This document shows, one piece after another, positions 13,316 through 30,500 of a stretch of 64,000 nucleotides of DNA. The stretch is taken from NCBI GenBank assembly GCA_965261395.1, contig OZ253462.1, positions 288,001-352,000 of the forward strand. The letters run 5' to 3'. The notes under the pieces were generated by a model. The model had not been told where the DNA came from. It searched no databases and worked only from the letters and a program-made list of their open reading frames with translations. This DNA comes from Candidatus Latescibacterota bacterium. GTDB taxonomy: Bacteria > Latescibacterota > UBA2968 > UBA8231. Both the position numbers and the translations under genes were made by a program. Each line of letters begins with the position of its first letter. The first letter of the stretch is position 1.

Positions 13316-14863
13316 ATGAACAAGCGCAGACTACCCATCGGCATTCAGACCTTCCGCGAGGTCCGCGAAGATACCTGCTACTACGTCGATAAAACCGCCT
13401 ACATCCGCCGGCTGCTCGACGAGGGTAAGCACTACTTCCTGTCGCGCCCACGGCGCTTTGGCAAGAGCCTATTCTTGGACACGCTCAAGGAAGTGTTCGA
13501 AGGCAACGAACCGCTGTTCGCGGGGCTGGACATTCACGACCGCTGGGATTGGTCGGTGCGTCATCCGGTGCTGCGGCTCGACTTCAGCAGTGGCACCTAC
13601 CAGGGGCCGGACGACTTGCGGAAGGAAGTGGCGGCGCAATTAAACACCTTGGAGGCCGAAGCGGAGATCGTCCCGCGCGACGACGAAGCGCCCGTCCGCT
13701 TCCGCCACTTGATGAAGGTGCTGCACGAGCGCAGCGGTCAGCGCGTTGCGGTGCTGGTCGATGAGTACGACAAGCCGATTCTCGATGCACTGGAAGTACC
13801 GGAGGTCGCCCGCGCCAACCGCGACTTTCTGCGCGGCCTGTATTCGACCGTGAAGTTTGCCGACGCGCACATCCGCTTCACGTTCATCACCGGGGTGAGC
13901 AAGTTTTCCAAGGTCAGCCTGTTTTCCGGCCTCAACAACCTCACCGATATCACCCTCGAACCCGAATACTCGGCCCTCTGCGGCTATACCGACGCCGATC
14001 TAGACGCCGTGTTCGCCCCGGAGTTGCCCGGCTTAGACCGGGACCAGATCCGCGACTGGTACAACGGTTATAGCTGGCTCGGCGACGAGAAGGTGTACAA
14101 CCCTTTTGACATCCTCCTGCTGTTTCGCCGCCGCCGATTCGCCGCCTATTGGTTTGAAACCGGCACTCCGACGTTTCTGATCGAAACGCTGTTCAAGCGC
14201 CGCGTCAGTTCCCTAGCACTCGATGAGATGGTCGGCAGCGACGAACTACTATCGACTTTTGATGTCGATGACATCGCAACCGAGGCACTGCTGTTCCAGA
14301 CCGGCTACCTGACGATAACCGACGAGGAAGACGTTGGCGGCGAGCCCGTCTATCGCTTGGGCTATCCCAACCGGGAGGTACGGCAGAGCCTGAACCGCAG
14401 CCTGCTGCGCTACTTGGTGCGCGATTCAACGCGGCAGATGGCCAACAGCGTGCAACTCTACCGGCTGCTGGAGGCTAACGACTTCGCCGGGCTGGAGACC
14501 CTGTTCCACGCCTTTTTCGCCAGCATTCCCTACGAGTGGTATTCCAACAACGACATCGCTAATTACGAGGGCTACTACGCCAGCGTGTTCTACTCCTATT
14601 TCGCGGGGCTGGGGCTGGACATCACAGTGGAGGACAGCAGCAGCCACGGACGCTTAGACATGGCGGTTCTATTCAATGGCAACATCTATCTATTTGAGTT
14701 CAAGGTGGTCGAGATGGCGTCTGCGGGTGCGGCGATGGCGCAGTTGCAGGAGCGGCGCTACGCGGACAAGTACCGCGCCTTGGGCCAGCCGATTTACCTG
14801 ATTGGCGTGGAGTTCAGCAAGGATGAGCACAACCTAGCGGCGTTTGAGGTGGAACGCGCCTGA
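13316..14863 (+). CDS. AAA-ATPase-like plus PD-(D/E)XK nuclease protein
   Basis: LPIGIQTF, YYVDKT, SRPRRFGKSL Walker A, VLVDEYDKP, C-terminal GRLDM...IYLFEFK. Confidence 0.9.
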   Translation: MNKRRLPIGIQTFREVREDTCYYVDKTAYIRRLLDEGKHYFLSRPRRFGKSLFLDTLKEVFEGNEPLFAGLDIHDRWDWSVRHPVLRLDFSSGTYQGPDDLRKEVAAQLNTLEAEAEIVPRDDEAPVRFRHLMKVLHERSGQRVAVLVDEYDKPILDALEVPEVARANRDFLRGLYSTVKFADAHIRFTFITGVSKFSKVSLFSGLNNLTDITLEPEYSALCGYTDADLDAVFAPELPGLDRDQIRDWYNGYSWLGDEKVYNPFDILLLFRRRRFAAYWFETGTPTFLIETLFKRRVSSLALDEMVGSDELLSTFDVDDIATEALLFQTGYLTITDEEDVGGEPVYRLGYPNREVRQSLNRSLLRYLVRDSTRQMANSVQLYRLLEANDFAGLETLFHAFFASIPYEWYSNNDIANYEGYYASVFYSYFAGLGLDITVEDSSSHGRLDMAVLFNGNIYLFEFKVVEMASAGAAMAQLQERRYADKYRALGQPIYLIGVEFSKDEHNLAAFEVERA

Positions 14864-14870
14864 TATAGAT

Positions 14871-15818
14871 ATGCTGAACGAACTGCGCAAAATCCGCTAC
14901 GCCCGCTTCCGCCTAGAGATGACCGCAGCTAGCCAATTGCGGTTGCCTCCCTACAAGGGATCCACCTTTAGAGGGGCCTTTGGCCATACCTTCAAACAGC
15001 TAGTCTGTGTCAAGCGGGATCTGGACTGTTCCACCTGTCTGATCAGCGACCGGTGCGTGTATTACTATGTCTTCGAGACCCCGTCCAATAGTGAGGGAGA
15101 GAAGGACAGTCGCGGATATACCTTTGCGCCGCATCCTTTTGTGATTGAACCGCCCGAGGAAACGCGGGAAATCTACGAGCCGGGAGCCGAATTGCGGGTC
15201 GGACTGGTTTTGGTGGGGCGTGCCTTGGACTACCTGCCCTACTTCATCTACGCCTTTGAGGAAATGGGGCAGCGAGGGTTAGGGGCCGGGCGCGGCAAAG
15301 CTGCTTTGCAGCGAGTTATTGCCCTCGGTCCTGAGCCTAGCGACGATAGGTGCATCTATCAGACCGGTACTGGGCAACTGGAGCAGGACTATCCGGTCGG
15401 CGTTGGTGCGCCTGACACCGAGGCCGTTGGAACGCGGCTCCGGCTGCGGCTGCACACGCCGCTGCGGCTCAAGAACGAGGGGCGCTATACTCGCCAGCTT
15501 GACTTTTCTCTATTGGTGCGATCCTTGTTGCGGCGCGCTTCGGATCTGGCCCGCTTTCACTGCGGGGCTGAGCTGGACCTAGACTATCGGCAGTGGATTG
15601 AGCGGGCAGCCGGGGTATCGGCGGCGACGACACTGCGCTGGCACGACTGGGAGCGGTATTCGCAACGGCAGGATCGGAGAATGAAGTTAGGTGGCTTGGT
15701 CGGCGAAGTGGAATTCGCTGGTGAGTGGCAACCCTTCATGCCACTGTTGCGGCTGGGCGCGGATCTACACGTGGGCAAGGGGACGGGGTTTGGACTAGGA
15801 CGCTACGAGATTTTGTAA
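14871..15818 (+). CDS. cas6: CRISPR pre-crRNA endoribonuclease Cas6
   Basis: GSTFRGAFG, C-x(5)-CxxC-x(4)-C, WHDWERYSQRQ, C-terminal G-loop HVGKGTGFGLGRY. Confidence 0.92.
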   Translation: MLNELRKIRYARFRLEMTAASQLRLPPYKGSTFRGAFGHTFKQLVCVKRDLDCSTCLISDRCVYYYVFETPSNSEGEKDSRGYTFAPHPFVIEPPEETREIYEPGAELRVGLVLVGRALDYLPYFIYAFEEMGQRGLGAGRGKAALQRVIALGPEPSDDRCIYQTGTGQLEQDYPVGVGAPDTEAVGTRLRLRLHTPLRLKNEGRYTRQLDFSLLVRSLLRRASDLARFHCGAELDLDYRQWIERAAGVSAATTLRWHDWERYSQRQDRRMKLGGLVGEVEFAGEWQPFMPLLRLGADLHVGKGTGFGLGRYEIL

Positions 15819-15835: not shown

Positions 15836-17524
15836 ATGAAACACAAACTAATCGCTGTGATCGGCAACACACCGCAAGTTATGACAGAGACTTTCTGGGC
15901 ATTGCGTTTCCAACTCCATGTGCCCATTGATGAAGTATTTGTGATGACGACAACTATGGGTAAAGCAACCTGCCAGCAACGCCTTTTGGACGAAGGCCGA
16001 TTTGCAAAGATGTTGTCGGACTACGATATCGACCCCGATACGGCCAAGTTCGACGCCGATCATATCCGTGTATTTAAAGATGCCGAGGGCAATTTTTTAG
16101 ACGATATCCGCACCTCTGATGATAATCGCCTAGCCAGGAATCAACTTTTCCGCTGGATTGAGGATTGGACCCAGAAGGATCATGTCGCTTTACACTGCTC
16201 GCTTGCAGGCGGACGTAAGTCAATGGGATACTTGCTCGGTGCTGCTATTCAATTTTTTGGCCGCCCACAAGATCGCCTGTATCATGCGCTGGTTACACCG
16301 CCAGAGATTGAAATGAATCGCGATTTTTTCTTTCCACCTGTTCGTGAAACGCAAATCCCCACGTCAGACGGGCAACACATTTCTACTGCTGATGTGCGTA
16401 TTGAGTTGGCAGAGTTACCCTATGTATCGGTAAGAGATATATCCGTATTTGGCGATGAAAGCTACGACCGAATTCTACAGAGAACACAAGAAGAGGTGAG
16501 GCGTATTCCACGTCTAAGAGCAGAAAACAAGCGATTGAGAGAAACATCGAGTAATGCCGGTGGATTGATCGGAAACAGTGCTGCTATGCGGAAAACCAAA
16601 GAACAGATTCGGCAAGCTGCTGATGCAGATGATGCAACCGTATTGCTCTTGGGTGAAACGGGAACGGGAAAAGAACGCGCAGGTGAAGAACTGCATGAGC
16701 AGAGCACGAGAAAAGATCGACCATTCATACCGATTAACTGTAGTGCATTCCCGGATACACTTTTAGAGGCAGAGCTATTCGGTGCGACACGAGGTACTTA
16801 TACCGGACAAGCCGGGCCGCGTAAGGGTGCGTTTCGCATGGCCGAAGGCGGTATCCTTTTTCTCGATGAAATAGGAGAATTATCACGTGATGGGCAGGCG
16901 AGGCTGTTGCGCGTATTACAAGAAAAGAAAATGCGCGCGGTTGGCAGCGATGAACCGGAGAAAGACATTGATGTACGCATTGTTGCGGCGACCAATCGCG
17001 ACTTAGAATCCATGGTTCGAGAAGGGGCTTTCCGAGAGGACCTGTTGTATCGCCTCAATGCTTTGACCATTTACATGCCACCGTTGCGAGAACTACGCGA
17101 AGATATACCGGAGCTAATCGACCTGTTTTGTGAACAGTTTAATGAAAAATACAAACGCAATGTTGTGGGCTTTGATGCCTCAGCTATAGACGCTATGTGC
17201 CGCTATACCTGGCCGGGTAACGTGCGCGAGCTTGAAAATGAAGTTCAGCGTATCGTCATTGCCGCGCCTCCGGGTGCATTTCGAGTACACAAGGAAAACT
17301 TAGCCAAGCATATTATTGAATCGACAGATTTAGACACGGGTAGTGGTACGCTCAAAGAACAAGTGGCACAGTTTGAGAAGCAAAAAATTGAGGAAGCGTT
17401 GGCGCAAACTCAGGGCGAAAGAGGATCTGCCGCAGAGATACTGGGTATCGACCCTACAACGCTGGGTAGAAAAGCTGAAAAGTATGGCTTATCTCTAAAA
17501 AAGAGTCATAAGGATCGTGAGTGA
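15836..17524 (+). CDS. CARF (NE0113/Sso2081-like) domain fused to sigma54 enhancer-binding AAA+ domain and Fis-type HTH
   Basis: N-term GNTPQVMTET and CSLAGGRKSMG CARF motifs; coiled-coil LRAENKRLR; GETGTGKE; ELFG..GTYTGQ; LFLDEIGE; AATNRDL; FREDLLYRLN; WPGNVRELEN; AAEILGI HTH. Confidence 0.9.
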   Translation: MKHKLIAVIGNTPQVMTETFWALRFQLHVPIDEVFVMTTTMGKATCQQRLLDEGRFAKMLSDYDIDPDTAKFDADHIRVFKDAEGNFLDDIRTSDDNRLARNQLFRWIEDWTQKDHVALHCSLAGGRKSMGYLLGAAIQFFGRPQDRLYHALVTPPEIEMNRDFFFPPVRETQIPTSDGQHISTADVRIELAELPYVSVRDISVFGDESYDRILQRTQEEVRRIPRLRAENKRLRETSSNAGGLIGNSAAMRKTKEQIRQAADADDATVLLLGETGTGKERAGEELHEQSTRKDRPFIPINCSAFPDTLLEAELFGATRGTYTGQAGPRKGAFRMAEGGILFLDEIGELSRDGQARLLRVLQEKKMRAVGSDEPEKDIDVRIVAATNRDLESMVREGAFREDLLYRLNALTIYMPPLRELREDIPELIDLFCEQFNEKYKRNVVGFDASAIDAMCRYTWPGNVRELENEVQRIVIAAPPGAFRVHKENLAKHIIESTDLDTGSGTLKEQVAQFEKQKIEEALAQTQGERGSAAEILGIDPTTLGRKAEKYGLSLKKSHKDRE

Positions 17525-17528
17525 ATGG

Positions 17529-17562
17529 CTGCAACCTTGCAGGGATTTCTGCAGAATTGCAT
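17529..17562. promoter_or_regulatory. Tandem palindromic upstream activator sequences (TGCA-N4-TGCA x2)
   Basis: CTGCAACCTTGCAG (17529-17542) and CTGCAGAATTGCAT (17549-17562), 20 bp apart, about 130-150 bp upstream of the predicted sigma54 start. Confidence 0.65.
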
Positions 17563-17608
17563 GACTGAACATGTTGTCGTCCATTTCCTGTTTCAGGAAA
17601 ACATCGCA

Positions 17609-17621
17609 CAACCTATTGTTT
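17609..17621. promoter_or_regulatory. IHF-like binding site
   Basis: CAACCTATTGTTT versus consensus YAANNNNTTGATW (one mismatch), between the UAS pair and the promoter. Confidence 0.45.
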
Positions 17622-17660
17622 TTCTTGATCTTTGAGAAAATTCGAAGGTTTTTTTGTGTT

Positions 17661-17675
17661 TGGCACGGGGATTGC
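17661..17675 (+). promoter_or_regulatory. Sigma54 (-24/-12) promoter
   Basis: TGGCACGGGGATTGC = TGGCAC-N5-TTGC with correct GG-N10-GC spacing; directly downstream of a bEBP gene and upstream of a GGAGG RBS. Confidence 0.85.
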
Positions 17676-17740
17676 GACTGTATAAGCAAAAGGTGAACAG
17701 TTTCAGTAAATCCGCAGCAAACATTAAATGGAGGAACAAC

Positions 17741-18091
17741 ATGAACACTCTAATCAATCAGGGGGATGAGCAATATTATTCTCAGGCCGGTTTCTGGAAT
17801 AAGTTGCGCAACTTCGCACGTACCGCGGGTCGGGAAGTCGTCGAGCATGCCCTGTCGCTCTACTACACCGCACAGGATCCTAACACACCGGCCTGGGCCA
17901 AGACGGTTATCTACGGAGTGTTGGGGTACTTCATCCTGCCGGTCGATCTAATTCCCGACCTGATCCCAGTCGTCGGCTTCAGCGACGATTTGGCTGCGTT
18001 TGTCGCCGCACTCGCTACCGTGGGGATCCATGTGACGCCTGAGATTAAAAACCGCGCCAAGAAGAAAGCAGCCGAGTGGTTTGGTAAGTGA
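17741..18091 (+). CDS. DUF1232/YkvA family small membrane protein
   Basis: TPAWAK..IYGVLGYFILPVDLIPDLIPVVGFSDD signature; GGAGG RBS. Confidence 0.9.
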   Translation: MNTLINQGDEQYYSQAGFWNKLRNFARTAGREVVEHALSLYYTAQDPNTPAWAKTVIYGVLGYFILPVDLIPDLIPVVGFSDDLAAFVAALATVGIHVTPEIKNRAKKKAAEWFGK

Positions 18092-18206
18092 GCAATGCAA
18101 GCAGAAGAGTTTTTAAGCATATTTATGAGTTTGGGTTGGCTCTGTACGTGGGCTAAGAGACGGGTTTGGGCTGGGATGCTACGGGATTTTATACAGGAGA
18201 AGGTTG

Positions 18207-20540
18207 ATGGTATCAAGAGACGCCCTAGTTGTCGGGGCCTTGCTGCACGATATAGGCAAATTTGAATTCAGGACATCGGACCGACGTACGCGCCACACCA
18301 CCTACGGGGATTTTTTTGTAGGCAAGTATCTGAGTCGTTTCCGCTGCTTGGAACCGATTCGGGAGGAGGTTCGCCGGTTGGTCGCCCATCACCACGATAG
18401 TGAGTTGGGTGATCCCTTTCTGCGGGAGGCCGACCATCTAGCGGCGGCGGATCGGCAGGTGGACGGCAGTCCCGAGACCCTGCGGTCGCTGGTGAGTATC
18501 CTGACCGCCGTGAACATTGGGAAGGGATCCTCACCACAGGATGTGCATCGGTATGCGCCGGGGCCGGTGGATTTTGCCAACCCCTTTCCCGAACACGTAT
18601 CAGGGGTCACGCCCGTCGAGTGGAAGCCCGACCGGGACCAAGCGCGAGACGAGCACGCCCGCGCTTGGGAGCAATTTTGCGCCGAGATCGGCACAATGCC
18701 CGATGGCGAGTTGGCGAGTTGGATTGAGACGTTCTTGGCGGTGGCTCGCAAGCATCTGAGTCGCGTGGCCTCGGCTGCCTACAAATCGCATCCAGATATT
18801 TCGCTCTACGATCACGCCCGCTCGGTGGCCGCCATTGCGGTGTGCCTACACGAGGCACATCAGCAAGCGGAGCCTTTCCTATTGATTCAGGGGGATATAT
18901 CGGGCGTTCAGTCCTTTCTCTATAAACTGGCTAGCCCAGCCGAAGAGGGAGGGACGAAAAATACCGCCAAGCGTTTACGGGGACGGTCGCTATTTCTAGT
19001 GCTACTAGCCGAGACCGTAGCACGTTATTACTTGCGTAAATTGAATTTGCCTCCGACCAACCTGCTGTACTGTGGCGGGGGGCACTTTTCGATCCTTGCG
19101 CCCCATACTGACGAGCTGAAAACCAAGCTGGCCGAGGCCGAAGAGCAGGTCAACCGCTGGTTGATCGACCAGCACCGGGGCGATCTGGCACTAGTGAGCG
19201 CAGCCACCTCGGCCGATAAGGAGTTGCTGGCCAATTTCCCTCGTTTGATGCAGCAATCGGGCTACGAGCTGGGCCGGGCCAAGCGGCAGAAATTCCGCTC
19301 CGTACTGGATGAGCGACTGTTCGCGTTGCCGGACTATGACCAGACCATGGACGTCTGCCCGGTATGCCAAGCTGATTTCGTCAAAGGCTCCGGGAAGACC
19401 TGTATGACCTGTAAACAACATGTGGAGACCGGGAGCCAAATCGTCCGGGCAGAGTTCTTGGTGCGGTTTGAAGGGGAAAATTTGGACGGGGAATTCGCCC
19501 AATTAGGTTTTGCTTGGGAATTGGCTGCCGACTGGAAAGAGGTTGTCCAGCTAGTAGGGGAAACCCCAGCCGAGCGCGTACATGTGGAACGGCTCAACCG
19601 CAGTGATTTCCTGACTCAGGCCGGCGCGGCCTTGGGTACGCGACATAGCCTCAGCTTCGGGTTCCGGCCACTCGGCCAGTACGCCCCCATTGACGAGCAA
19701 GAGAAGGGGCCGCTGGACTTTGAACACTTGGCCCAAATCAATAGTGAAAAATACCCGCTATTGGGAGTGGTACGCCTCGATGTCGATGCGCTGGGCGCAG
19801 TATTCGCTTCGGGGTTGGGGGAACAGCGATCTCTATCGCGCACAGCCACTTTGAGCCGCGAATTGGAGACCTTCTTCTCTGGCTATGTCAACACCTTGGC
19901 CAAAGATCATTATATGTACATCACCTACGCCGGAGGCGACGACCTGTTCGCCGTAGGCTCTTGGATCAACGCCCTTGAATTCAGTCGCGCCTTGCGGCGG
20001 GACTTTGGTCAGTTCAGCGGTGGCAATCCCAATCTGACCTTTTCCGGCGGTCTGTTTTTTTGCAAGCCGGATTTCCCCATCGGACGGGCTGCCGAAGCCG
20101 CTGGCAAACTGGAGAAGCGGGCCAAGGATTTCCCAGACAAGAATGCCGCCTGCCTGTTTGACGAAGAGGTCTCTTGGGAACGGCTCGACAAGTTGCTCGC
20201 CTTTGGCGACGAACTACTGTACTTGGTGACCGAAGCGGACCCAAACAACCGCTTGCCCCGCTCGTTTGTGCATCGTCTGTTGAGCTTGGGAGCCGAGCGC
20301 CGGTTGGCCCAAGAAGAAGGAAAATTAAAAGCCGAAATAAAAACTCAAATACAGCTCAAATATCTCGTAGCCCGACGCGGGGCCACCAGCAAGGCGATCA
20401 GCGACAATCAGGAGATGGAGGCAGACCGACGCAGAATAGGTGCCTTGGGACGACTGGTCAACGAGCCGGAATTGATGCGCCAGATCGCCGTACCTGCATC
20501 ATACGTACTGTACAAGACGCGAAACCTCAACACAGAGTAG
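18207..20540 (+). CDS. cas10: Type III-A Cas10/Csm1
   Basis: LLHDIGK HD motif, DISLYDH, GDISGVQ, CPVC/CMTC zinc finger, YAGGDDL palm motif (GGDD at 19932-19943). Confidence 0.97.
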   Translation: MVSRDALVVGALLHDIGKFEFRTSDRRTRHTTYGDFFVGKYLSRFRCLEPIREEVRRLVAHHHDSELGDPFLREADHLAAADRQVDGSPETLRSLVSILTAVNIGKGSSPQDVHRYAPGPVDFANPFPEHVSGVTPVEWKPDRDQARDEHARAWEQFCAEIGTMPDGELASWIETFLAVARKHLSRVASAAYKSHPDISLYDHARSVAAIAVCLHEAHQQAEPFLLIQGDISGVQSFLYKLASPAEEGGTKNTAKRLRGRSLFLVLLAETVARYYLRKLNLPPTNLLYCGGGHFSILAPHTDELKTKLAEAEEQVNRWLIDQHRGDLALVSAATSADKELLANFPRLMQQSGYELGRAKRQKFRSVLDERLFALPDYDQTMDVCPVCQADFVKGSGKTCMTCKQHVETGSQIVRAEFLVRFEGENLDGEFAQLGFAWELAADWKEVVQLVGETPAERVHVERLNRSDFLTQAGAALGTRHSLSFGFRPLGQYAPIDEQEKGPLDFEHLAQINSEKYPLLGVVRLDVDALGAVFASGLGEQRSLSRTATLSRELETFFSGYVNTLAKDHYMYITYAGGDDLFAVGSWINALEFSRALRRDFGQFSGGNPNLTFSGGLFFCKPDFPIGRAAEAAGKLEKRAKDFPDKNAACLFDEEVSWERLDKLLAFGDELLYLVTEADPNNRLPRSFVHRLLSLGAERRLAQEEGKLKAEIKTQIQLKYLVARRGATSKAISDNQEMEADRRRIGALGRLVNEPELMRQIAVPASYVLYKTRNLNTE

Positions 20541-20549
20541 GAGACCATC

Positions 20550-21008
20550 ATGGCTAACGAACACAGAGGAAGTGGGGGTGGAGGAGCCGACCGTCGGAGG
20601 GACCAGACCACCAGGGCTAACAAACAGCCCATTAATTTGGGCACCATTACTCCCCAGGAACTGAACCGCCGGGGTGAAGAGTTGGGCAAGGAACTGGCAA
20701 GGAACATTAAGGCCAACCAGATCCGCAATATCTACGGTGCGGTCCAGCACATTCGCGTCCGCGCGAGTCGGCCCCAACCCGATACCGAAGATATCAATCG
20801 CCGCCTGATCTTCCTCAAGCCAAAACTGGCCTATGCCAGTGGTCGGCAAAATAATTTGAGGGGCTTACGGGATGTATTGGTGGAGGCGATTGATAGCGTA
20901 GTACGAAGCGAAGACCCCCAAAAAGCGCAAAAAGCGCGGGATAACTTTTTCATCCTGATGGAATCTATCGTGGCCTACCACAAATTCTACGGCGGCAAAG
21001 ATTCGTAA
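20550..21008 (+). CDS. csm2: Type III-A small subunit Csm2
   Basis: NQIRNIY, LKPKLAYASGR, ESIVAYHKF. Confidence 0.95.
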   Translation: MANEHRGSGGGGADRRRDQTTRANKQPINLGTITPQELNRRGEELGKELARNIKANQIRNIYGAVQHIRVRASRPQPDTEDINRRLIFLKPKLAYASGRQNNLRGLRDVLVEAIDSVVRSEDPQKAQKARDNFFILMESIVAYHKFYGGKDS

Positions 21009-21030: not shown

Positions 21031-21852
21031 ATGGCTCAATTTATTGGCAATATCATTATGCGCGGCAAAATCGAGTGCCTCACCGGTCTGCACATTGGGG
21101 CGGGCAAGGACACTGCCGAGATCGGCGGAGTCGATAGCCCGGTAGTGCGCGACCCCCATAGCCGCCGGCCCTATATCCCTGGCTCTTCCCTCAAAGGCAA
21201 GATGCGTTCCATGCTGGAGTTCGCTACGGGCAAAGTGAAGGATGGCAAGGTGCATACTTGTAACGAGGCCCGCTGCGAGGTGTGTCGGCCTTTTGGGTCG
21301 TCGGCCGCAGATGCGCGCAAATGCGGTCCCACGCGGCTGTTGGTAAGGGACGCCTATCCCGACGAGCAGACCCAAAGCATGTGGGAGAATCTGAGTACCG
21401 ACTTACTCTACGCGGAGATGAAATCGGAAAACTTTTTGGATCGCATCACTTCGGCGGCCAATCCCCGTTTCATCGAGCGGGTGGTCAAGGGATCGTGCTT
21501 CAATTTGGAAATGATCTATGGAGTCTATCAGGTGGACGGCGTCAACGACCTCGACTTTTTCGCCCATGTAGTGACCGCGCTGCGCCTGCTTGAAGACGGC
21601 ACCTTGGGCGGCAACGGCAGCCGAGGCTACGGCCAGATACGCCTGAAGCTGGCCGACCCTGTTTTCTTAAGTGGGCAAGACTACTGCGAAGGTAGCGATG
21701 CCTGGAAACAAGCCCGTCAGTGGCCAGCCGACGAAGCCATTGTGCGGGGCATGGGTGACTTCTCGTTGAACCGAGAGGATGCTACCTGCCAATCATGGGA
21801 TGAGATAATGAAGTCGCCAGAGGACGAGGTGGGCAAAGAGGGGCATGGATGA
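21031..21852 (+). CDS. csm3: Type III-A backbone RAMP Csm3
   Basis: TGLHIG, IGGVDSPVVRDP (catalytic Asp present), PYIPGSSLKGKMRS, LGGNGSRGYG. Confidence 0.95.
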   Translation: MAQFIGNIIMRGKIECLTGLHIGAGKDTAEIGGVDSPVVRDPHSRRPYIPGSSLKGKMRSMLEFATGKVKDGKVHTCNEARCEVCRPFGSSAADARKCGPTRLLVRDAYPDEQTQSMWENLSTDLLYAEMKSENFLDRITSAANPRFIERVVKGSCFNLEMIYGVYQVDGVNDLDFFAHVVTALRLLEDGTLGGNGSRGYGQIRLKLADPVFLSGQDYCEGSDAWKQARQWPADEAIVRGMGDFSLNREDATCQSWDEIMKSPEDEVGKEGHG

Positions 21853-22814
21853 AAGCGATCTATCTGCAATCCCGAGGGGCCTATCGCAACGAGCTGCATT
21901 CGGACACCCTATTCGGACTGATTTGCTGGGCGATCCGTCAGGTCTTTTCGGAGGCGAGGTTGGTGGAGTTGCTAAAAGCCTTTTATGCTGGCCAGCCCCC
22001 CTTCCTGCTTAGCTCAGCTTTCCCCTGCGCCAAAGACGGCACCGCCGTCTGGAAGCCCTTTTTGCCTCGTCCGTTGCTTCCACCTCCGGCGCCTGTGGAA
22101 GATCTGAGCCCCGAAGAAGCTCAGCGGCTCAAACGGTACAAGCGGCTCCGCTATATTCCCGCCGATCACTTCAATCAATTTTTGCAGGGCGACTATTCGG
22201 AGGGTTCGTATTATGAGTCCGATGTCTGGGAAAAAACTACGGTGCCGATTCCCCGGCGTACTGACCGCTTGCATGGCACCATTGATCGATTGAGCGGCAC
22301 TACCGATGGAGAGGGCACACTGTTCTCCGAGCCCGAATACCGGACGGACGGACTCTACTTCTTGCTCGACGGGGAAGAAGCCGAACTAGTGGAAAACGCG
22401 CTCCGTTTTCTGGAGGATTTCGGCTGGGGTGGAGGCAATAGCGTGGGCTATGGCCACTTTGCTGCGACCGTAGGTGAAAGCCCGCTCGCCGTCGCCGTCT
22501 CTGCGCCGGATCGCTTTATCACCCTGTCCCTGTACCATCCTCGATCCGACGAACTCGCGCATTTCAAAACTGGGGAAGCGTGGTACGAGTTGGTGGTTCG
22601 CAAGGGCAAGGTGGGCGGCCACTTCCTCCAAACGGGCGACTTTTGGAAGCGCTCGGTATTGATGTTTGCTCCCGGCTCGACCTTCCCAGCGATGGCGGAA
22701 AAGCAAGTGTACGGACGCAATCCCATTGTAAAGGGGCGGAAGGACGGGCTACCCTTCGACGTGCAGCAATTCGGCTATGCCCTTGCCGTGGGCATGAAAA
22801 CGGCCAGAGAGTAG
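21849..22814 (+). CDS. csm4: Type III-A RAMP Csm4
   Basis: HSDTLFG, LSSAFP, GWGGGNSVGYGHF, TLSLYHP, MFAPGSTF. Confidence 0.93.
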   Translation: MKAIYLQSRGAYRNELHSDTLFGLICWAIRQVFSEARLVELLKAFYAGQPPFLLSSAFPCAKDGTAVWKPFLPRPLLPPPAPVEDLSPEEAQRLKRYKRLRYIPADHFNQFLQGDYSEGSYYESDVWEKTTVPIPRRTDRLHGTIDRLSGTTDGEGTLFSEPEYRTDGLYFLLDGEEAELVENALRFLEDFGWGGGNSVGYGHFAATVGESPLAVAVSAPDRFITLSLYHPRSDELAHFKTGEAWYELVVRKGKVGGHFLQTGDFWKRSVLMFAPGSTFPAMAEKQVYGRNPIVKGRKDGLPFDVQQFGYALAVGMKTARE

Positions 22815-22819
22815 AAATT

Positions 22820-24562
22820 ATGGAACGAAGAGTGCAGTGTCTGTCGCCGGTACACATTGGCACGGGTAAGGAACTAGAACCTTTCGACTATATCGTGGAT
22901 GGCCAACGCTATATTCGCGTCCACTTGGATGCAGTCCTCGAACGGATGACGACCGAACAAGTGGACGATCTGGCTGCCTGGGTGAGCGAGCGGGCTGACC
23001 AGATGGTAGAACTGGGAAGGAAGCAAAGCGATGATATCCGGCGGGAGATGCAGCTATCGAACTTCCCCGGCGCTGATGTCGCGTTACGGGAGGCTCTTCG
23101 AACGGACTCAGCCCTAGCTCGCTACCACGGCAATAAGGGATTTGATCGCAATTTGCAGGTGCGAGAGCAGGTCAAAGATGCCGATGAGACGCCTCTCATT
23201 CCGGGCAGTTCGCTCAAGGGTGCTCTGCGTACGGCCCTCGCTTTTGCCGCTTTGGAGGAAATGGAACTGGCCGAGCGGGAGGCGTTGAGACAGTCGCTTG
23301 AACGACGACTGAACGAGAGAGGCCCTCGTCTGCAAGAACGTATCGGCCAAGAGATAGAACAGGCCGTCTTCCGCTGTGGGAAGGAGCAGAGGGGGCGCAC
23401 TAGCTATGGAGACATCCACTACGACTTGATGAGGGCAGTCTCCGTCTCGGACACGTACGATGCCCAAGCGGAATTGATCGTGCCGCAGATATACACCTTT
23501 GTCGAGTCGCGCACCCGGGAGGGAAATACCAGACTCGCCGCCCAAGCGCCGCTTATCGTCGAAGCGCACGCACCGGGCAATATCTTCAGTCTGCGTCTGC
23601 GGATTGACGGTGGTCTCCTGCGGGCGATTAGTCAGAATGGTCGCAGAGGCGAGTGGATCAACTTTGAGCAACGGGTGCAGCGGGCCTTTGGCTCTGAGGT
23701 GGCGCGGCTGTTGCCGGGAGCATCGGACGAGCAAGTGGAGCAGGCCGTGGTAGGCCGGCTCGAAGCCGCGGCGCGGAGCTTTGCCAAGGCAATCGTGTCG
23801 GCTGAACAGGGCTGGGAGGAAGCACACGGGCACAGTTCCCGCGATCTAAAGGACTTTTACAATCGGCTAGACGACCTGATAGGAAAGGGATTGGTGCCGC
23901 TGCGGTTGGGCTGGGGCAGTCACTTTATGGCCACTACTTTGTTGCTGGCGCTCAAAGAGGATGCGGGCTGGCGTCCTATACTGGAAAGGTGCTTCCGGGC
24001 GTTTGATATAGGCGTTCCTCCAGGACGACATAGAGATAGGGGCAGAGATTCGGAGCGCCAAATTGAGCTCGACGACTTCCCCCGCTCCCGTCGGCTGGTT
24101 GCGGCCGGAAGGAGGCCTGTAGCCCCCTTGGGCTGGATCGCATTAGTGCCTACAGTGGAAGAGTTGCCCGGACCGCTGGTGGAAAAGGAGCGGCTGCTCG
24201 CCCGAACTCAGGAGAGCGAACCTAGGCGAGGGGAAAGGCCACAGGCGGACAGATATAGAGATGGGCGCGGCGGGCGCAGCGAGCCGGGACCGGCTCCACG
24301 CCCCGAACGACCTCTCCCGCAGATCAAGCTTCCGAAGCCTGCCTCGAAACCGCCGCCCCGCCAAGGGTCTCGGCCGGGCGACCGAGTCAATGTGGAAATC
24401 GTGGCCAACGACAACGCTCAGGTTACGGTAAAAGTGCTGGACGGTCAGGGCGAGGAGGTGCGGTTCCGGCAGCCTTACTATCCGGGCCGACCTGGAGAAA
24501 AGAGAAAGATGAAGGTCAGAGCAGTGGACTCCCAAGGCAAGATCACGCAGGTGGCCCCTTGA
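22820..24562 (+). CDS. csm5: Type III-A RAMP Csm5 with C-terminal extension
   Basis: LSPVHIGTG, IPGSSLKGALRTA, LRLGWGS, PLGW; ATG at 22820 (the ORF track start is too far upstream). Confidence 0.92.
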   Translation: MERRVQCLSPVHIGTGKELEPFDYIVDGQRYIRVHLDAVLERMTTEQVDDLAAWVSERADQMVELGRKQSDDIRREMQLSNFPGADVALREALRTDSALARYHGNKGFDRNLQVREQVKDADETPLIPGSSLKGALRTALAFAALEEMELAEREALRQSLERRLNERGPRLQERIGQEIEQAVFRCGKEQRGRTSYGDIHYDLMRAVSVSDTYDAQAELIVPQIYTFVESRTREGNTRLAAQAPLIVEAHAPGNIFSLRLRIDGGLLRAISQNGRRGEWINFEQRVQRAFGSEVARLLPGASDEQVEQAVVGRLEAAARSFAKAIVSAEQGWEEAHGHSSRDLKDFYNRLDDLIGKGLVPLRLGWGSHFMATTLLLALKEDAGWRPILERCFRAFDIGVPPGRHRDRGRDSERQIELDDFPRSRRLVAAGRRPVAPLGWIALVPTVEELPGPLVEKERLLARTQESEPRRGERPQADRYRDGRGGRSEPGPAPRPERPLPQIKLPKPASKPPPRQGSRPGDRVNVEIVANDNAQVTVKVLDGQGEEVRFRQPYYPGRPGEKRKMKVRAVDSQGKITQVAP

Positions 24563-24813: not shown

Positions 24814-25950
24814 ATGCGTTTCGTTCTGTCAACCGTTGGCACAAGCATCCTGACAAATCTCATTGATAACAGCAATCCTGACGAATCTATCTGGCGGAAT
24901 AGATTGCGGGATTCGGCGAATCTCAAACAGGGCGAACTAGAACCGGAAACTGAGACGGCGATCAATACACTTTCTGACCGGGCACTCGAAAAACTGATGC
25001 AAGATGATGCCGAAATCAACCGCCGAATTAGTGCCGAGTTGAACGGCATTTACGGTATCTACGGAAGTCAATTGCCTAAAAACAGCCCCGATGAGCACTA
25101 TCTCATCTGCACCGACACCGCACAGGGGCAGAAGACGGGCGAACTGATTGAGGATTTCCTTGGAGGGATGGGATTTAGGGTAGGAATCGTCACGCCTCCT
25201 CGGCTTTCGACACAAGATCCAGAATCCTTCACCACAGGCACGAAGGAACTCATTAAGTGGCTGGAGGACAACGTGCCGTGGCGACGTGATAGTGGCTATC
25301 GCGTGATTTTCAATCTGGTTGGCGGCTTCAAAAGTCTGCAAGGTTACATGAATACTTTCGGTGCATTTTACGCTGATGAGGTGATATACATCTTTGAGGC
25401 ACCAACCGCTGACTTAATCAAGATTCCGCGCCTGCCAATTCAGATTGACACCACCGTGGTTGAAAACCATCGGATGCAATTTGCATTGATGGATGCTGGA
25501 AAACTGTATCCGATTGAGGAACTCGAAGGTATCCCAGAAACGCTGCTTGAATTCGTAGAAGATAATGGCGTGAATTATGGGGGATTATCGGCGTGGGGAC
25601 AGTTGATCTGGAACCGAACGAAATCGGATCTATTGATAGATGCGTTATTGCCATTTCCACGATTGACATACGAGCAAGACTTCATCAACGACTGCGAGAC
25701 TTTGCACAACAAGCAACGCATTGATCTTCAAGAGACTTTAGCGAAGATCGCCGCCGTGCTCGAAGATAGCAGCGGCAACATAACACTGCTTAATAAGAGA
25801 ATTTCTGGACTGAACTTTGAAAAACTTCAAAATCTTGATATCTATACATTCCGTATTACTCTTGCCTACCGCGTCAGTTGCAAGGTTTCTAGAGATACAT
25901 TAATCCTTCGGCGCTATGGCGTTCATGACTACGTGTACCAAAATCCATAG
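24814..25950 (+). CDS. CARF (APE2256/Sso1393-like) - RelE-like effector, Cami1-like
   Basis: STVGTSILTN, SAELNG, TDT..G, NLVGGFKS, YIFE CARF motifs; C-terminal FEKLQ..IYTFRIT..YRV..LILRRYGVHD RelE-like domain. Confidence 0.85.
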   Translation: MRFVLSTVGTSILTNLIDNSNPDESIWRNRLRDSANLKQGELEPETETAINTLSDRALEKLMQDDAEINRRISAELNGIYGIYGSQLPKNSPDEHYLICTDTAQGQKTGELIEDFLGGMGFRVGIVTPPRLSTQDPESFTTGTKELIKWLEDNVPWRRDSGYRVIFNLVGGFKSLQGYMNTFGAFYADEVIYIFEAPTADLIKIPRLPIQIDTTVVENHRMQFALMDAGKLYPIEELEGIPETLLEFVEDNGVNYGGLSAWGQLIWNRTKSDLLIDALLPFPRLTYEQDFINDCETLHNKQRIDLQETLAKIAAVLEDSSGNITLLNKRISGLNFEKLQNLDIYTFRITLAYRVSCKVSRDTLILRRYGVHDYVYQNP

Positions 25951-26026
25951 GAAACATGGGTTGAACTCCAGGAGGACGCCCAGCTACGCGCCTATCGGGC
26001 ACTCGAATTTTCCAAGGGGTATCGCC

Positions 26027-27058
26027 ATGCCCACCCTGTACGTCACAGAACCCAGATCGGTCGTCCGGCGTTCGGTCGGCTCCGTCGTGGTAACGCTCAA
26101 CGAGGACCCCGACGGGCCGGGGCCACTGCCCGAACGCCAGCGGCGCTTGCTCGAAGTCGAGCCACATCGGCTGGAACTGATCGCCCTGGTAGGCCGCGTT
26201 CATATCACCGCAGACGCGCTCCAACTTTGCTTGGAGCAGGGCATTGCGGTCGCTTGGTTGCAGGCGAATGGGAATTTTATGGGCCGTCTCGTGCCGGAGT
26301 TGTCGCGCACGGCCGATCTGCGTTTGGCGCAGTTCCGCATGGCCGACGACGAGCCGCAGGCGCTGGCACTGGCTCAGACCTTTGTCGCAGCCAAGCTCCA
26401 CAATGCGGTTGGCCTGCTGACGGCTTTGCGCTCCAATCGCCGCAGCCAGCCTGCTTTGGGACGGGCCATCGGGGAACTCAGGGCCATGGCCGATACCGTG
26501 GCGCAGGCGACTAGCCGGGAGGTGCTACTGGGCTATGAGGGCGATGCGGCCCGGCGCTACTTTGCGGGGCTGCGGCTCGGTTTCACGGGTGCCATCGGCT
26601 TTGACGGCCGTGCTCGTCGGCCACCGCCGGACCCGGCCAATGCCTTGCTGTCGTTCGGCTATGTGTTGCTGGCTAATGTACTGGCGAGTCTGCTGGAGGC
26701 CTGCGGCTTCGATCCCTACTTGGGCTTTATGCACACAGTCCGTTCTGGGCGGCCCAGTTTGGCACTCGACCTTTTGGAGGAATTGCGGCATCCGGTCGTG
26801 GATCGCTTTGTGCTGCGGGTGTGCAATCGGGGACAATTGCGTCCCGAGCATTTTGAGACTGATGCCGAACGGGGCGGTGTGCGCCTCACCCGTGCAGGTA
26901 TGCGAATTTTCTTTCGCACTTGGGAAGCCTTTATGGACGCTCCACTGCCGGGGATTGGCACAGAGATGTCACCAGAAGAATTGCTTCGCCGTCAGGTTGA
27001 TCGTCTAGCGGCCCACGTGCGAGATCAAGCGCCATACCAACCCTTGCTTCTACGCTGA
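26027..27058 (+). CDS. cas1: CRISPR integrase Cas1
   Basis: LLGYEGDAARRYF, RRPPPDPANALLSFGY, DPYLGFMH, SLALDLLEELR. Confidence 0.96.
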   Translation: MPTLYVTEPRSVVRRSVGSVVVTLNEDPDGPGPLPERQRRLLEVEPHRLELIALVGRVHITADALQLCLEQGIAVAWLQANGNFMGRLVPELSRTADLRLAQFRMADDEPQALALAQTFVAAKLHNAVGLLTALRSNRRSQPALGRAIGELRAMADTVAQATSREVLLGYEGDAARRYFAGLRLGFTGAIGFDGRARRPPPDPANALLSFGYVLLANVLASLLEACGFDPYLGFMHTVRSGRPSLALDLLEELRHPVVDRFVLRVCNRGQLRPEHFETDAERGGVRLTRAGMRIFFRTWEAFMDAPLPGIGTEMSPEELLRRQVDRLAAHVRDQAPYQPLLLR

Positions 27059-27070
27059 GGAGGCTTGCCT

Positions 27071-27358
27071 ATGTCCCGCTTTGTTGTGTGCTACGATATA
27101 GCCGACAATAAACGCCGCTATAAGGTGGCCGCCTGCCTAGATGGGTATGGCGACCGCGTACAGGGCAGCGTATTCGAGTTGCGGGTCGAGCGCACCCTTC
27201 TCGACCGATGCTTAGACGAGGTATCCGGCCTGATCGATGCGGCTGAGGACAGCGTGGTCGTCTATCGCCTTTGCGCGGCCTGCGAGAAAGAGCGGGTTTA
27301 TTGGGGCGTAGGCGAACAGGTTGCCCATATTGGCGAGGAAGATGTATTTATCGCATGA
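27071..27358 (+). CDS. cas2: CRISPR-associated Cas2
   Basis: VVCYDIADNKRR, GDRVQGSVFE, DSVVVYRLC. Confidence 0.95.
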   Translation: MSRFVVCYDIADNKRRYKVAACLDGYGDRVQGSVFELRVERTLLDRCLDEVSGLIDAAEDSVVVYRLCAACEKERVYWGVGEQVAHIGEEDVFIA

Positions 27359-27551: not shown

Positions 27552-30500
27552 GTTTGGAATATTGACCCGATTACTAGGGGATTGAAACCATGAGAACCTG
27601 GACGATTGTCGGATTCATCTTCTTCCGTTTGGAATATTGACCCGATTACTAGGGGATTGAAACTTCACCTCTGACGGAGCATAATCATATGGCATATTGT
27701 GTTTGGAATATTGACCCGATTACTAGGGGATTGAAACTCAGCATCTCCAAGATGCCGGACCCTTCTCCATTCGTGTCGTTTGGAATATTGACCCGATTAC
27801 TAGGGGATTGAAACCGCGAAGGGTCTCAAACCGACGTAAGTCCCACAGGTACTGTTTGGAATATTGACCCGATTACTAGGGGATTGAAACTCGAGAGGAG
27901 AATCGATCTTGTTTTCACGCAGGATTAGACGTTTGGAATATTGACCCGATTACTAGGGGATTGAAACCTACTGCGGTCAAGGACATCATAGCGTGTCTCC
28001 ATATGTCTTAGTTTGGAATATTGACCCGATTACTAGGGGATTGAAACTCAACCCGGACAACAAGATAAGCATCTCGGATATAGCTGTTTGGAATATTGAC
28101 CCGATTACTAGGGGATTGAAACGCTAACAGCACAAGCCTTGGCAATGTCCGTTTCCGTTGTTTGGAATATTGACCCGATTACTAGGGGATTGAAACTAGC
28201 ATTGTCCGATATGACCAAGCTATCGACATAGGTGTGTTTGGAATATTGACCCGATTACTAGGGGATTGAAACAGACCATGCCAAAAAAATGGGAGAGGAA
28301 ATGAATGTCTTGTTTGGAATATTGACCCGATTACTAGGGGATTGAAACCTTCTGGGCGAACTCGACTAAGTTTGCGACTTTTTCTTGGCATGTTTGGAAT
28401 ATTGACCCGATTACTAGGGGATTGAAACCTGGCCGACGGCGAGCACTGGTCCACTCGCCATCCCGGCATGAGTTTGGAATATTGACCCGATTACTAGGGG
28501 ATTGAAACCCTTGTCTTGCTCATTTACTGGAAGCGGACCCTCCCAGCACCATGTTTGGAATATTGACCCGATTACTAGGGGATTGAAACCGCTCCAGCGT
28601 GCCGTTGACCACCCCTTCTCCTTTCTCTTTGGTTTGGAATATTGACCCGATTACTAGGGGATTGAAACCTGTACTCGGTGGATGTGTCGGACGCCTCAAC
28701 AACAGAGATGTTTGGAATATTGACCCGATTACTAGGGGATTGAAACCGCGACTGGCTGTAGGTTCGACCACCACCGGCAGGATGCGTTTGGAATATTGAC
28801 CCGATTACTAGGGGATTGAAACGAAGAGACCCAGTACTGGGTACAGGTGCGGTTTGTCAATGTTTGGAATATTGACCCGATTACTAGGGGATTGAAACTG
28901 GGATCGACAGTTGGCCGGCATACGCGAAGTGGCCCAAACGTTTGGAATATTGACCCGATTACTAGGGGATTGAAACCGAGAAGATCGCCGGTTGGCCCGA
29001 ACGGATCGAGCTGCGCGCCGTTTGGAATATTGACCCGATTACTAGGGGATTGAAACCGCCCTATGTTGGGTTAGGGGAGGACAGGGGACACATGAGAGTT
29101 TGGAATATTGACCCGATTACTAGGGGATTGAAACGGGACATGGTGATGAACGAGCGTGGCAGCCGGCGACGGCGGTTTGGAATATTGACCCGATTACTAG
29201 GGGATTGAAACCTGAGAACTGTTGTTATGCACCTGCGCCAGCAACGATGTTTGGAATATTGACCCGATTACTAGGGGATTGAAACATAGATCAGACATGC
29301 TGCGCGACCTCGTTGAAATAGGGCTGGTTTGGAATATTGACCCGATTACTAGGGGATTGAAACCGTCATCGGCGTAGCCTAGGTGCACCTTGTGAGCCCC
29401 TTGTGTTTGGAATATTGACCCGATTACTAGGGGATTGAAACATCTTTCTTACTCCTCGGGAAAAAAGGCTTGCACTGCAGTTTGGAATATTGACCCGATT
29501 ACTAGGGGATTGAAACGACGGAATCCCTGGGCCGCAAGCCAGTATTCCTTTTCCGCGGTTTGGAATATTGACCCGATTACTAGGGGATTGAAACGCGGGG
29601 TGTGCTGCGGTCTACTTGGTCAATTCGTATCCATGTTTGGAATATTGACCCGATTACTAGGGGATTGAAACCAACGGCAGCTTCAAGAAGTGTGATACCA
29701 TAGAAAATCAGGTTTGGAATATTGACCCGATTACTAGGGGATTGAAACCAACGGCAGCTTCAAGAAGTGTGATACCATAGAAAATCAGGTTTGGAATATT
29801 GACCCGATTACTAGGGGATTGAAACTGGATTAATGCTATGATGGGAGGCGTCAATACCTCCGATCGTTTGGAATATTGACCCGATTACTAGGGGATTGAA
29901 ACGTGAAGAATGTTTCTTGCTCTTATGAAACTTTGGCCTTGATGTTTGGAATATTGACCCGATTACTAGGGGATTGAAACAGCACCTTGACCACCCGATG
30001 GTCCTTGCGGTCCGGGTGGTGTTTGGAATATTGACCCGATTACTAGGGGATTGAAACGGTCGTGAGGTATTGTTCAAACGTGCAGTCCTGCCGGTGTTTG
30101 GAATATTGACCCGATTACTAGGGGATTGAAACGGGAGTACATCTGATCTTGCTTTAGGGTCGTCATTAGAGTTTGGAATATTGACCCGATTACTAGGGGA
30201 TTGAAACATCTGTGCGAGGGCGTGATGACCAAGTTCCGTCATCCGTTGTTTGGAATATTGACCCGATTACTAGGGGATTGAAACTTCAACAGTTGAATGA
30301 GGCTGTCGGCATGGACGCGGGCGTTTGGAATATTGACCCGATTACTAGGGGATTGAAACACATCTTCTTTCTCTTCGCTGTTATACTTGGTCTGTTCGGT
30401 TTGGAATATTGACCCGATTACTAGGGGATTGAAACTAAACGGAGTTATGACTACGGAACAGATAAGCCTTGGTATTGGTTTGGAATATTGACCCGATTAC

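Follow-up and report, generated by a model that had tools for sequence, protein, structure and literature searches.

A DUF1232/YkvA gene behind a sigma-54 promoter as a candidate transcriptional output of a type III-A CRISPR locus in Latescibacterota

The stretch of DNA analysed here, 64,000 nucleotides (nt) of contig OZ253462.1 of a Candidatus Latescibacterota bacterium and referred to below as the window, contains an intact type III-A CRISPR locus in which a small gene of the DUF1232/YkvA family (positions 17741-18091) stands behind a sigma-54 promoter. Upstream of this promoter lie paired palindromic sites and the gene of a CARF-sigma54 enhancer-binding activator, downstream of DUF1232 lies a cas10 gene with the cyclase motif, and both the parts and their order are conserved in related loci. 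We propose that the DUF1232 protein is a dedicated, membrane-acting transcriptional output of a CRISPR alarm switch, and estimate the probability of this whole chain at about 0.5. Its parts are not equally strong: to judge from the sequence, DUF1232 is very probably a conserved output gene controlled by the activator, whereas its role as a membrane-perturbing effector is the weakest step and is advanced tentatively. The elements on which the proposal is built are the following.

15836-17524, + strand: gene of the CARF-sigma54 enhancer-binding activator, 562 amino acids (aa), domain order Cas_NE0113-Sigma54_activat-AAA_lid_14-HTH_8
17530-17541, + strand: putative upstream activator site 1, the perfect palindrome TGCAACCTTGCA, at -131 from TGGCAC
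17550-17561, + strand: putative upstream activator site 2, TGCAGAATTGCA, at -111 from TGGCAC
17661-17675, + strand: sigma-54 promoter core TGGCACGGGGATTGC, an exact TGGCAC-N5-TTGC
17687-17740, + strand: 5' untranslated region (UTR) with GGAGG, conserved together with DUF1232 in the alignment of upstream DNA
17741-18091, + strand: DUF1232/YkvA protein gene, 116 codons (open reading frame (ORF) translation and Pfam)
18092-18206, + strand: spacer between DUF1232 and cas10
18207-20540, + strand: cas10/csm1 (TIGR02578, E 1.2e-164), with an HD motif (H13, D14) and GGDD at residue 576

The DUF1232 gene, its promoter and its activator

The protein encoded at 17741-18091 matches the DUF1232 profile PF06803 over residues 53-88 (E 2.3e-13, 50.1 bits against a cut-off of 23, Pfam profile search), and its relatives are labelled 'uncharacterized membrane protein YkvA' in their source annotations. 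PF06803 is the sole domain in its 116 aa, and the protein thus has no sensor domain of its own. A GGAGG ribosome-binding site (17730-17734) is located 6 nt 5' of the ATG, and the gene is the only member of its family in the source genome of 6.55 Mb. An earlier reading made from the letters alone, the sequence-only reading, had described a 116-aa DUF1232 ORF with a strong ribosome-binding site, inside the cas locus and about 55 nt past the predicted transcription start, whose product lacks a sensor; the family profile, the GGAGG and the exact promoter core confirm this description, and the absence of a sensor is borne out as well. The nine CRISPR-linked orthologues of DUF1232, described below, are each 116 codons long and can be aligned gap-free, with 68-92% identity to the protein of the window. 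Pairwise dN/dS among them (36 pairs) is 0.20 in the median and 0.48 at most, which indicates a real gene under purifying selection.

In an AlphaFold2 model built from 60 sequences (mean pLDDT 79.8), the protein is predicted to form four helices, at residues 15-45, 51-65, 79-93 and 100-114, the first of which is long, conserved and predicted with a pLDDT of 84-97. Hydropathy delimits a hydrophobic core of 49 residues (51-99), followed by a basic C-terminal tail with 6 K/R in the last 20 residues. Between the two hydrophobic helices (51-65 and 79-93), the family core P-x-D-x-I-P-D-x-x-P-x-x-G-x-x-D-D is present, the low-confidence loop 66-78 of the model carrying the conserved P-D-IPD-P-G-DD motif. 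In the alignment of 60 sequences D69, D73, G79, D82 and D83 never vary, and conservation reaches 90% or more at P67, I71, P72 and P76. Hydropathy and the source annotations suggest a membrane location, the shortness of the helices making a full span uncertain. PADLOC and NCBIfam contain no model that matches the protein, and Foldseek of the model against the PDB gave no match at E <= 0.001. A wide VIA-align search with the model had its best match in the transporter VcINDY (4f35; Z 7.4, rmsd 7.6 over 109 residues), which is below the noise level for helical models; further matches to DASS transporters (Z 6.2-6.9) are likewise noise, and nothing was inferred from them.

The promoter core TGGCACGGGGATTGC is the single exact TGGCAC-N5-TTGC in the window. 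If one mismatch is allowed, five sites are found in the window against 5.6 expected by chance, a count that is uninformative alone. The chance of meeting an exact core in the right orientation within the 216-nt spacer between activator and DUF1232 is about 4e-4 by our arithmetic. The 6.55-Mb genome contains 23 exact sites on both strands, and TGGCACGGGGATTGC is the only one of them with activator sites upstream; the paired palindromes at -131 and -111 are unique in the genome and, judged by sequence and position, are likely to serve as binding sites of the activator. From the GC of the -12 element at 17674-17675, transcription is predicted to start near 17687, so that the 5' UTR would measure about 54 nt; its RNA is predicted to be unstructured (z +1.2). 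Promoters of the sigma-54 type are silent without their activator. One rpoN gene is present in the genome (PF04552 match, E 3.5e-60). Contigs of relatives from three metagenome runs (X6, X7 and X10, the kind being recorded for X10 only, as 'DNA?') have a variant control region, in which 124 nt from enhancer to leader (17593-17718) are replaced by 108 other letters; it resembles the control region of L009, one of the related loci described below.

The activator starts with the ATG at 15836, which is preceded by AAGGAG. Its N-terminal part is a CARF domain of the Cas_NE0113 family (PF09623, 7.4e-36; TIGR02584, 176.6 bits against a cut-off of 80.65) that matches the PADLOC model CARF5 over residues 1-227 (E 4.1e-71). 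This part is followed by a Sigma54_activat domain (PF00158, 2e-61) with the Walker A motif GETGTGKE and the Walker B motif FLDE, by AAA_lid_14 and by HTH_8 (PF02954, 2e-11). The RtcR/PspF-like PADLOC profiles match only this AAA-HTH half (RtcR_PspF2, E 1.4e-99, residues 222-552). A model of the CARF part (pLDDT 75.4) has 30 Foldseek matches at E <= 0.001, the best being the Cad1 CARF domain bound to cA4 or cA6 (TM 0.67-0.70, target-normalised) and the cA4 ring nucleases Sso2081 and Sis0455. When solved structures were searched by sequence with the CARF profile, only weak matches (E 0.08-0.28) came up, all of them to CARF proteins. These fold neighbours, together with the GGDD motif of Cas10, suggest that the activator binds cyclic oligoadenylate (cOA).

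In the spacer between DUF1232 and cas10 (18092-18206) no terminator-like or sigma-70-like site was found (fold z 0.2), and read-through into cas10 is therefore likely. The cas6 gene of the window lies upstream of the activator and outside the sigma-54 unit.

The cassette in related loci and DUF1232 elsewhere

The CARF part of the activator, used as query, returned 215 proteins, and among the 120 listed 101 have both CARF and sigma-54 domains. A scan with a CARF alignment in one genome per species yielded 30 loci, 12 of which are close (60-89% identity) and all from Latescibacterota, one of these close loci (L008) being cut by a contig end; the rest are stand-alone CARF proteins from other phyla or short N-terminal pieces. 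Neighbour content was taken from the Pfam annotation of 144 ORFs. TGGCAC-N5-TTGC is found 137-279 nt past the activator stop codon in 11 of 11 complete related loci, and the genes that follow this promoter are given here locus by locus.

Window: DUF1232, csm genes
L005: DUF1232, a protein with a cold-shock domain followed by RAMP-like sequence (CSD-RAMP), short Cas10
L009: DUF1232, EcsC, CSD-RAMP protein, short Cas10
L007 and L031: Cas6, DUF1232, cmr genes
L010, L011, L012 and L013: Cas6, DUF1232, other type III sets
L006: Cas6, cas10; no DUF1232
L003: FGE-sulfatase, ankyrin, kinase, DUF4407 and FHA genes; no cas effector genes and no DUF1232
L004: ends 275 nt past Cas6; not assessable for DUF1232

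DUF1232 is thus present in 9 of the 11 CARF-activator loci that can be assessed (12 examined). It stands before at least three effector sets, namely Csm in the window, Cmr in L007 and L031, and sets in L005 and L009-L013 whose Cas10 is short (511-547 aa), some of which also carry a CSD-RAMP protein of 845-875 aa. Each locus with the activator has at least one cas gene, and type III effector genes are present in 10 of the 12. The sequence-only reading had placed DUF1232 as the first gene under the promoter and had suggested that activator, promoter and DUF1232 may form a portable module. The first statement holds for three of the nine loci (the window, L005 and L009), DUF1232 being second, behind Cas6, in the other six. 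The idea of a portable module is favoured by a single DUF1232 clade in front of several type III sets and by the private second cassette described below; it is limited by L006 and L003, in which the promoter is followed by Cas6 and cas10 and by swapped cargo, respectively, in place of the DUF1232 conserved elsewhere.

Alignment of the DNA upstream of the nine DUF1232 genes, confirmed by a pattern scan, shows that the control region is conserved together with the gene. An exact sigma-54 core is found 48-81 nt 5' of the DUF1232 ATG in eight of nine loci; the exception is L013, in which DUF1232 abuts Cas6 and only a decayed promoter copy is left. Paired sites at -132 and -111/-112 accompany seven of the nine DUF1232-proximal promoters, with site 1 at -132 in L005, L007, L010, L011, L012 and L031 (-131 in the window), and L009 has one site, at -102. 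Five of the loci that start with Cas6 (L007, L010, L011, L012 and L031) contain a second full control region, private to DUF1232, in the spacer of 225-260 nt between Cas6 and DUF1232. Its parts are the palindromes GTGCAAAATTGCAC and GTGCAGAATTGCAC, an AT-rich stretch, the core TTGGCACGCGGATTGCAT and a conserved leader ending AATGGAGGAACAACATG. The single promoter of the window is, by its sites at -131 and -111, of this DUF1232-proximal type.

When placed in one tree with ten further DUF1232 proteins from Latescibacterota, the nine CRISPR-linked ones form one group (support 92/90) with two sub-groups that match the gene orders and the host families (f1 and f4). The activator also falls into two sequence groups, and these do not follow the same division; for example, L009 has a group-B activator and a DUF1232 that is 92% identical to that of the window; the parts of the cassette have therefore been reshuffled.

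DUF1232 is found in 80 of 168 Latescibacterota genomes, but in only 16 of 75 of the family of the window and 9 of 30 of its genus. Of five activator-free genomes of this genus that were inspected, four have the gene overlapping the end of a PhyH dioxygenase gene and one has it alone, and no cas gene occurs within 10 kb of it in any of the five. A GH99-like gene lies just upstream of PhyH in three of the four PhyH-linked cases (L033, L034 and L037). The genome of the window keeps this GH99-like/PhyH operon (88% identity) with an ORF of 334 aa in the position of DUF1232 (contig C1:1016600-1018000, outside the window). At nine further places, paralogues (32-56% identical) stand without cas genes in the vicinity and without a sigma-54 core immediately in front of them, and the association with CRISPR and the promoter is therefore specific to one DUF1232 clade.

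A database search returned 438 DUF1232 relatives, with about 30 clusters at least 71% identical. In nine of these clusters the longest contig has the same size as that of an activator cluster (e.g., 144831, 20634, 38165, 31181 and 174538), which suggests, as soft support, further co-occurrence of DUF1232 and activator. Relatives occur in 6 of 50,697 phage records (26-40% identity) and, scattered, in 81 of 72,556 plasmids. A scan of metagenome contigs with the nine CRISPR-linked proteins gave two distant matches (39% and 49%) on short contigs, with no gene context.

Several peculiarities of the related loci are worth recording. In L003 (11945-20387) the same activator and promoter are followed by genes for an FGE-sulfatase, an ankyrin-repeat protein, a double FGE-sulfatase, a protein kinase, DUF4407 and FHA proteins, with Cas6 and an AAA-ATPase/PDDEXK gene still upstream of the activator; here the switch may control another kind of defence or conflict cargo. 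Behind the CSD-RAMP proteins of L005 (12346-14964), L009 (13088-15715) and L011 (13968-16505) comes a short Cas10-like protein (531-547 aa), an unusual type III set. An EcsC-family gene (L009:12437-13066) lies between DUF1232 and the effector genes of L009, and an IS4/IS5-type transposase gene (L012:13882-14748) is inserted between DUF1232 and cas10 of L012. The spacers 3' of DUF1232 in loci with the gene after Cas6 are L007:13627-13889, L010:13483-13896, L011:13740-13970, L012:13791-13884 (94 nt, the shortest) and L031:13422-14240 (819 nt, the longest). A short hairpin with a T-run is conserved around CGCGTACCCTATTGCGCTATTTT in these spacers and could act as an incomplete terminator between DUF1232 and the effector genes. 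N-terminal pieces of the activator (23-56 residues, up to 96% identical) occur in the Latescibacterota loci L029:10001-10069, L030:10001-10069 and L028:10001-10174, in the first two of which they precede unrelated ORFs of about 544 aa; these pieces are perhaps remnants or else scars of recombination.

Proposed working and competing explanations

In the proposed pathway, binding of target RNA would cause Cas10 to make cOA, and this messenger would be bound by the CARF domain of the activator. The AAA+ ring would then assemble on the -131 and -111 sites and open the sigma-54 closed complex, which would result in a burst of DUF1232 mRNA. In the genome of the window the transcript probably continues into cas10 and csm2-5, providing a feed-forward boost. 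The csm genes behind the switch need their own product, and some basal transcription is therefore required; its simplest source is probably read-through of cas6 and the activator gene. The DUF1232 product would be a sensor-less helical hairpin that inserts in the membrane, and its most likely action would be to alter the permeability or potential of the membrane and thereby slow the infected cell. The tight all-or-none promoter would thereby replace the ligand sensor of the known CRISPR membrane effectors. In its most far-reaching form, which is speculative and rather doubtful, the pathway would be a purely transcriptional abortive-infection arm in which cOA acts through the CARF-sigma54 activator on a two-helix protein that depolarises or permeabilises the cell, the module being portable before any type III set.

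A number of observations weigh against this proposal. L006 and L003 share the activator and promoter without DUF1232, which means that the circuit works without it; by gene content, the cargo behind the switch seems partly swappable and DUF1232 dispensable. All 12 loci belong to a single class and to two of its families, all 'first gene' cases belonging to family f1 and all 'after Cas6' cases to f4, and they are thus not independent samples. In the after-Cas6 loci the spacers 3' of DUF1232 are long (228-816 nt in the four without an insertion element) and carry hairpin-plus-T runs, and co-transcription of DUF1232 with the effector genes is therefore not general. The genes translationally coupled to PhyH in the same genus encode close DUF1232 relatives (59-67% identical), which shows that DUF1232 is not intrinsically a defence family, and this closeness to ordinary chromosomal genes makes an intrinsic toxicity of DUF1232 unlikely. 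Homologues about 50-59% identical over the full protein are also found in other phyla, including Proteobacteria and Cyanobacteria. The hydrophobic helices have only about 15 residues each, with four invariant aspartates. The sigma-54 contact (L1) loop of the activator reads GTYTGQ in place of GAFTGA, and that of its relatives GAYTGQ, GAYSGQ or GAFTDA; F-to-Y variants of the GAFTGA loop keep activity. The RNA evidence, i.e., assembled contigs from one RNA library, consists of a 710-nt contig of a relative that is about 95% identical, spans 17550-18240 and begins upstream of the predicted transcription start; it may represent DNA or read-through, and shows neither start nor induction.

As to what DUF1232 would do at the membrane, the effector idea of the sequence-only reading (membrane perturbation, dormancy or blocking of superinfection) is ranked first; a promoter of its own that is kept tightly shut would fit a harmful product. 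A benign or protective role is ranked second and would fit the close kinship with ordinary chromosomal YkvA genes. In this second explanation, which we consider unlikely, DUF1232 would be an adaptive membrane protein that keeps the membrane working during arrest by the locus's own effectors (CARF-RelE and the Cas10 HD domain), much as the phage-shock genes under PspF and sigma-54 work protectively. A benign function would fit the close relatives in metabolic operons and the wide distribution of the family outside defence loci, and its rarity in phages is not typical of a lysis protein. Moreover, the AAA+-HTH half of the activator is closest to a PspF-like PADLOC profile. However, no PspA-like or other stress gene stands beside DUF1232 in any locus, a promoter of the tightest class and a private cassette are not obviously needed for protection, and the papers on DUF1232 or YkvA in the full-text literature searched give no functional account.

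A somewhat less likely possibility is that the switch is real and its input is not cOA: the CARF domain would sense RNA ends or bind proteins, and DUF1232 would answer general RNA damage. The cut RNA could come from the locus's own CARF-RelE RNase. A precedent exists in RtcR, the only studied CARF-sigma54 activator, which is reportedly controlled by binding of RtcAB to its CARF domain (PMC9650030; here and below, published systems are described from excerpts of the cited papers). However, the CARF domain of the window belongs to the CARF5/NE0113 group and not to the divergent RtcR group, the RtcR profiles being confined to the other half of the protein, and its predicted fold best matches CARF domains that bind cA4 or cA6. 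The constant company of cas genes, mostly of type III effectors, argues in the same direction.

Two further explanations are improbable. PspA binds PspF and shuts the PspF switch off, and DUF1232 could similarly be a partner of the machinery, either a feedback element that binds the activator and turns the switch off or a membrane anchor of the type III complex, as its persistence with the activator across swaps of effector genes and its long cytosolic N-terminal helix, which could bind a partner according to the model, would allow; the variety of effector sets behind it speaks against a specific contact with one complex, and the circuit is present without it in L006 and L003. Finally, DUF1232 as a mere passenger, i.e., a chromosomal YkvA gene captured by the promoter or a translated leader with no defence role, would agree with a family that is not defence-specific and has no PADLOC or NCBIfam model, with the two loci that lack it and with the narrow phylogenetic sample, but is opposed by the purifying selection, the grouping of the CRISPR-linked copies in the tree, the conservation of promoter, UTR and ribosome-binding site with the gene, the second cassette that after-Cas6 loci keep for DUF1232 alone, and the genome of the window, whose only DUF1232 is this one and whose orthologous PhyH operon has another gene in its place. 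Overall, the DUF1232 cassette as a conserved module with the activator is well supported within one bacterial class, and the effector role of its product is plausible.

Known systems and the rest of the locus

Known outputs of type III signalling mostly bind the messenger directly, the transcriptional routes being Csa3 and CalpL-CalpT-CalpS. Csa3, a CARF-wHTH protein that binds cA4 (PMC8699464), couples the type III messenger to transcription of CRISPR genes like the activator of the window; it is a simple DNA-binding protein acting on ordinary promoters, whereas here an ATP-driven activator acts on a sigma-54 promoter whose first product is not a Cas protein. In CalpL-CalpT-CalpS a cA4-activated protease frees an ECF sigma factor (PMC11229360), and both systems share a transcriptional arm with an alternative sigma factor. 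That route uses proteolytic release of sigma and no enhancer-binding ATPase, and CalpS is presented without a defined target gene; in the locus described here the target promoter and the first gene can be read from the sequence.

Among CARF-sigma54 activators, RtcR and similar proteins predicted beside restriction-modification genes have been described (Makarova et al., 2014, PMC4012209). Like the activator of the window, these combine CARF, an NtrC/PspF-type AAA+ domain and HTH and lie just upstream of a sigma-54 promoter that drives neighbouring genes, rtcBA in the case of RtcR. NE0113 is named in the excerpted text of PMC4012209 only as a CARF protein without an effector domain. In contrast to RtcR, the CARF part of the window's activator is CARF5/Cas_NE0113 (TIGR02584), and the genes under its promoter are DUF1232 and cas genes of type III, in place of genes for RNA repair or restriction.

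The nearest counterparts of DUF1232 itself are Cam1, Csx23, CorA and the candidates Cam2 and Cam3, small helical membrane proteins of type III loci that are thought to act on membrane potential (PMC10808066, PMC11014256, PMC10600005, PMC11229360). Each of them carries its own ligand domain (CARF, a soluble cA4-binding domain or a SAM-AMP sensor) and is switched post-translationally, whereas DUF1232 has no such domain and would be controlled by transcription only. It thus differs from ligand-gated effectors, which are defined by a fused sensor of their own, and is matched by no PADLOC model; it may still work similarly at the membrane.

A comparison with holins gives a mixed picture: the size, the two hydrophobic helices and the basic end of DUF1232 would fit, the short helices with their acidic residues less so. 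Holins sit in phage lysis cassettes, and DUF1232 relatives are rare in phage records. The phage-shock operon resembles the cassette in its PspF-like AAA+ activator, its sigma-54 promoter and its small membrane-associated products made on infection stress, and differs in that the locus has no PspA, PspB or PspC homologue and that the sensor here is a CARF domain fused to the activator.

The cassette was not described in the full-text literature searched, in which papers on DUF1232 or YkvA did not concern CRISPR or function; several survey supplements lay outside this search. The 2024 type III survey explicitly set regulators aside (PMC11229360, excerpted text), and the one supplement covered has no mention of DUF1232, PF06803, YkvA, sigma54 or Sigma54_activat. 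Within this literature coverage, what would be new is the proposed route through a CARF-sigma54 activator to a CRISPR-linked DUF1232; transcriptional outputs of type III signalling and CRISPR-linked membrane proteins are known as such. An important aspect of this system is that its whole path can be traced in the sequence, from sensor and motor over enhancer sites and promoter to the first product, and recurs with different effector sets; it is therefore directly testable, e.g., in Escherichia coli, which has sigma-54. Such tests would show whether cOA can drive sigma-54 transcription, and might yield a compact, tightly off, ligand-inducible promoter system. They would also give a first handle on the DUF1232/YkvA family, which is spread over bacteria, archaea and eukaryotic RING ligases and for which an abortive-infection module, if true, would be the first function.

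The remaining genes of the type III-A locus flank the cassette on both sides.

13316-14863: protein with AAA-ATPase_like and PD-(D/E)XK (PDDEXK_9) domains, no PADLOC match
14844-15818, + strand: cas6 (Pfam CRISPR_Cas6, E 2.5e-21)
20550-21008, + strand: csm2 (Pfam Csm2_III-A)
21031-21852, + strand: csm3
21849-22814, + strand: csm4 (Pfam Csm4_C)
22580-24562, + strand: ORF of csm5, true start uncertain (csm2 to csm5 together have Pfam matches to Csm2_III-A, RAMPs and Csm4_C)
24814-25950, + strand: CARF-RelE (Cami1-like) ancillary effector (PADLOC CARF7--CARF_RelE, E 5.8e-128; Pfam Cas_APE2256)
25916-27058, + strand: cas1
27065-27358, + strand: cas2
27627-32057, + strand: CRISPR array with the 37-nt repeat GTTTGGAATATTGACCCGATTACTAGGGGATTGAAAC

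With the activator and CARF-RelE, there are two CARF sensors in the locus. An assignment of 24814-25950 as Csm6/HEPN, made from an RRYGVH motif, was rejected in favour of the PADLOC match to CARF-RelE. The AAA-ATPase_like/PDDEXK_9 gene lies directly upstream of cas6 in three loci in which Cas6 precedes the activator (the window, L003:7171-9018 and L009:6592-8466). Within the array, at 29635-29825, a repeat-spacer unit of 77 nt occurs 2.5 times with 100% matches, which amounts to two identical adjacent spacers.

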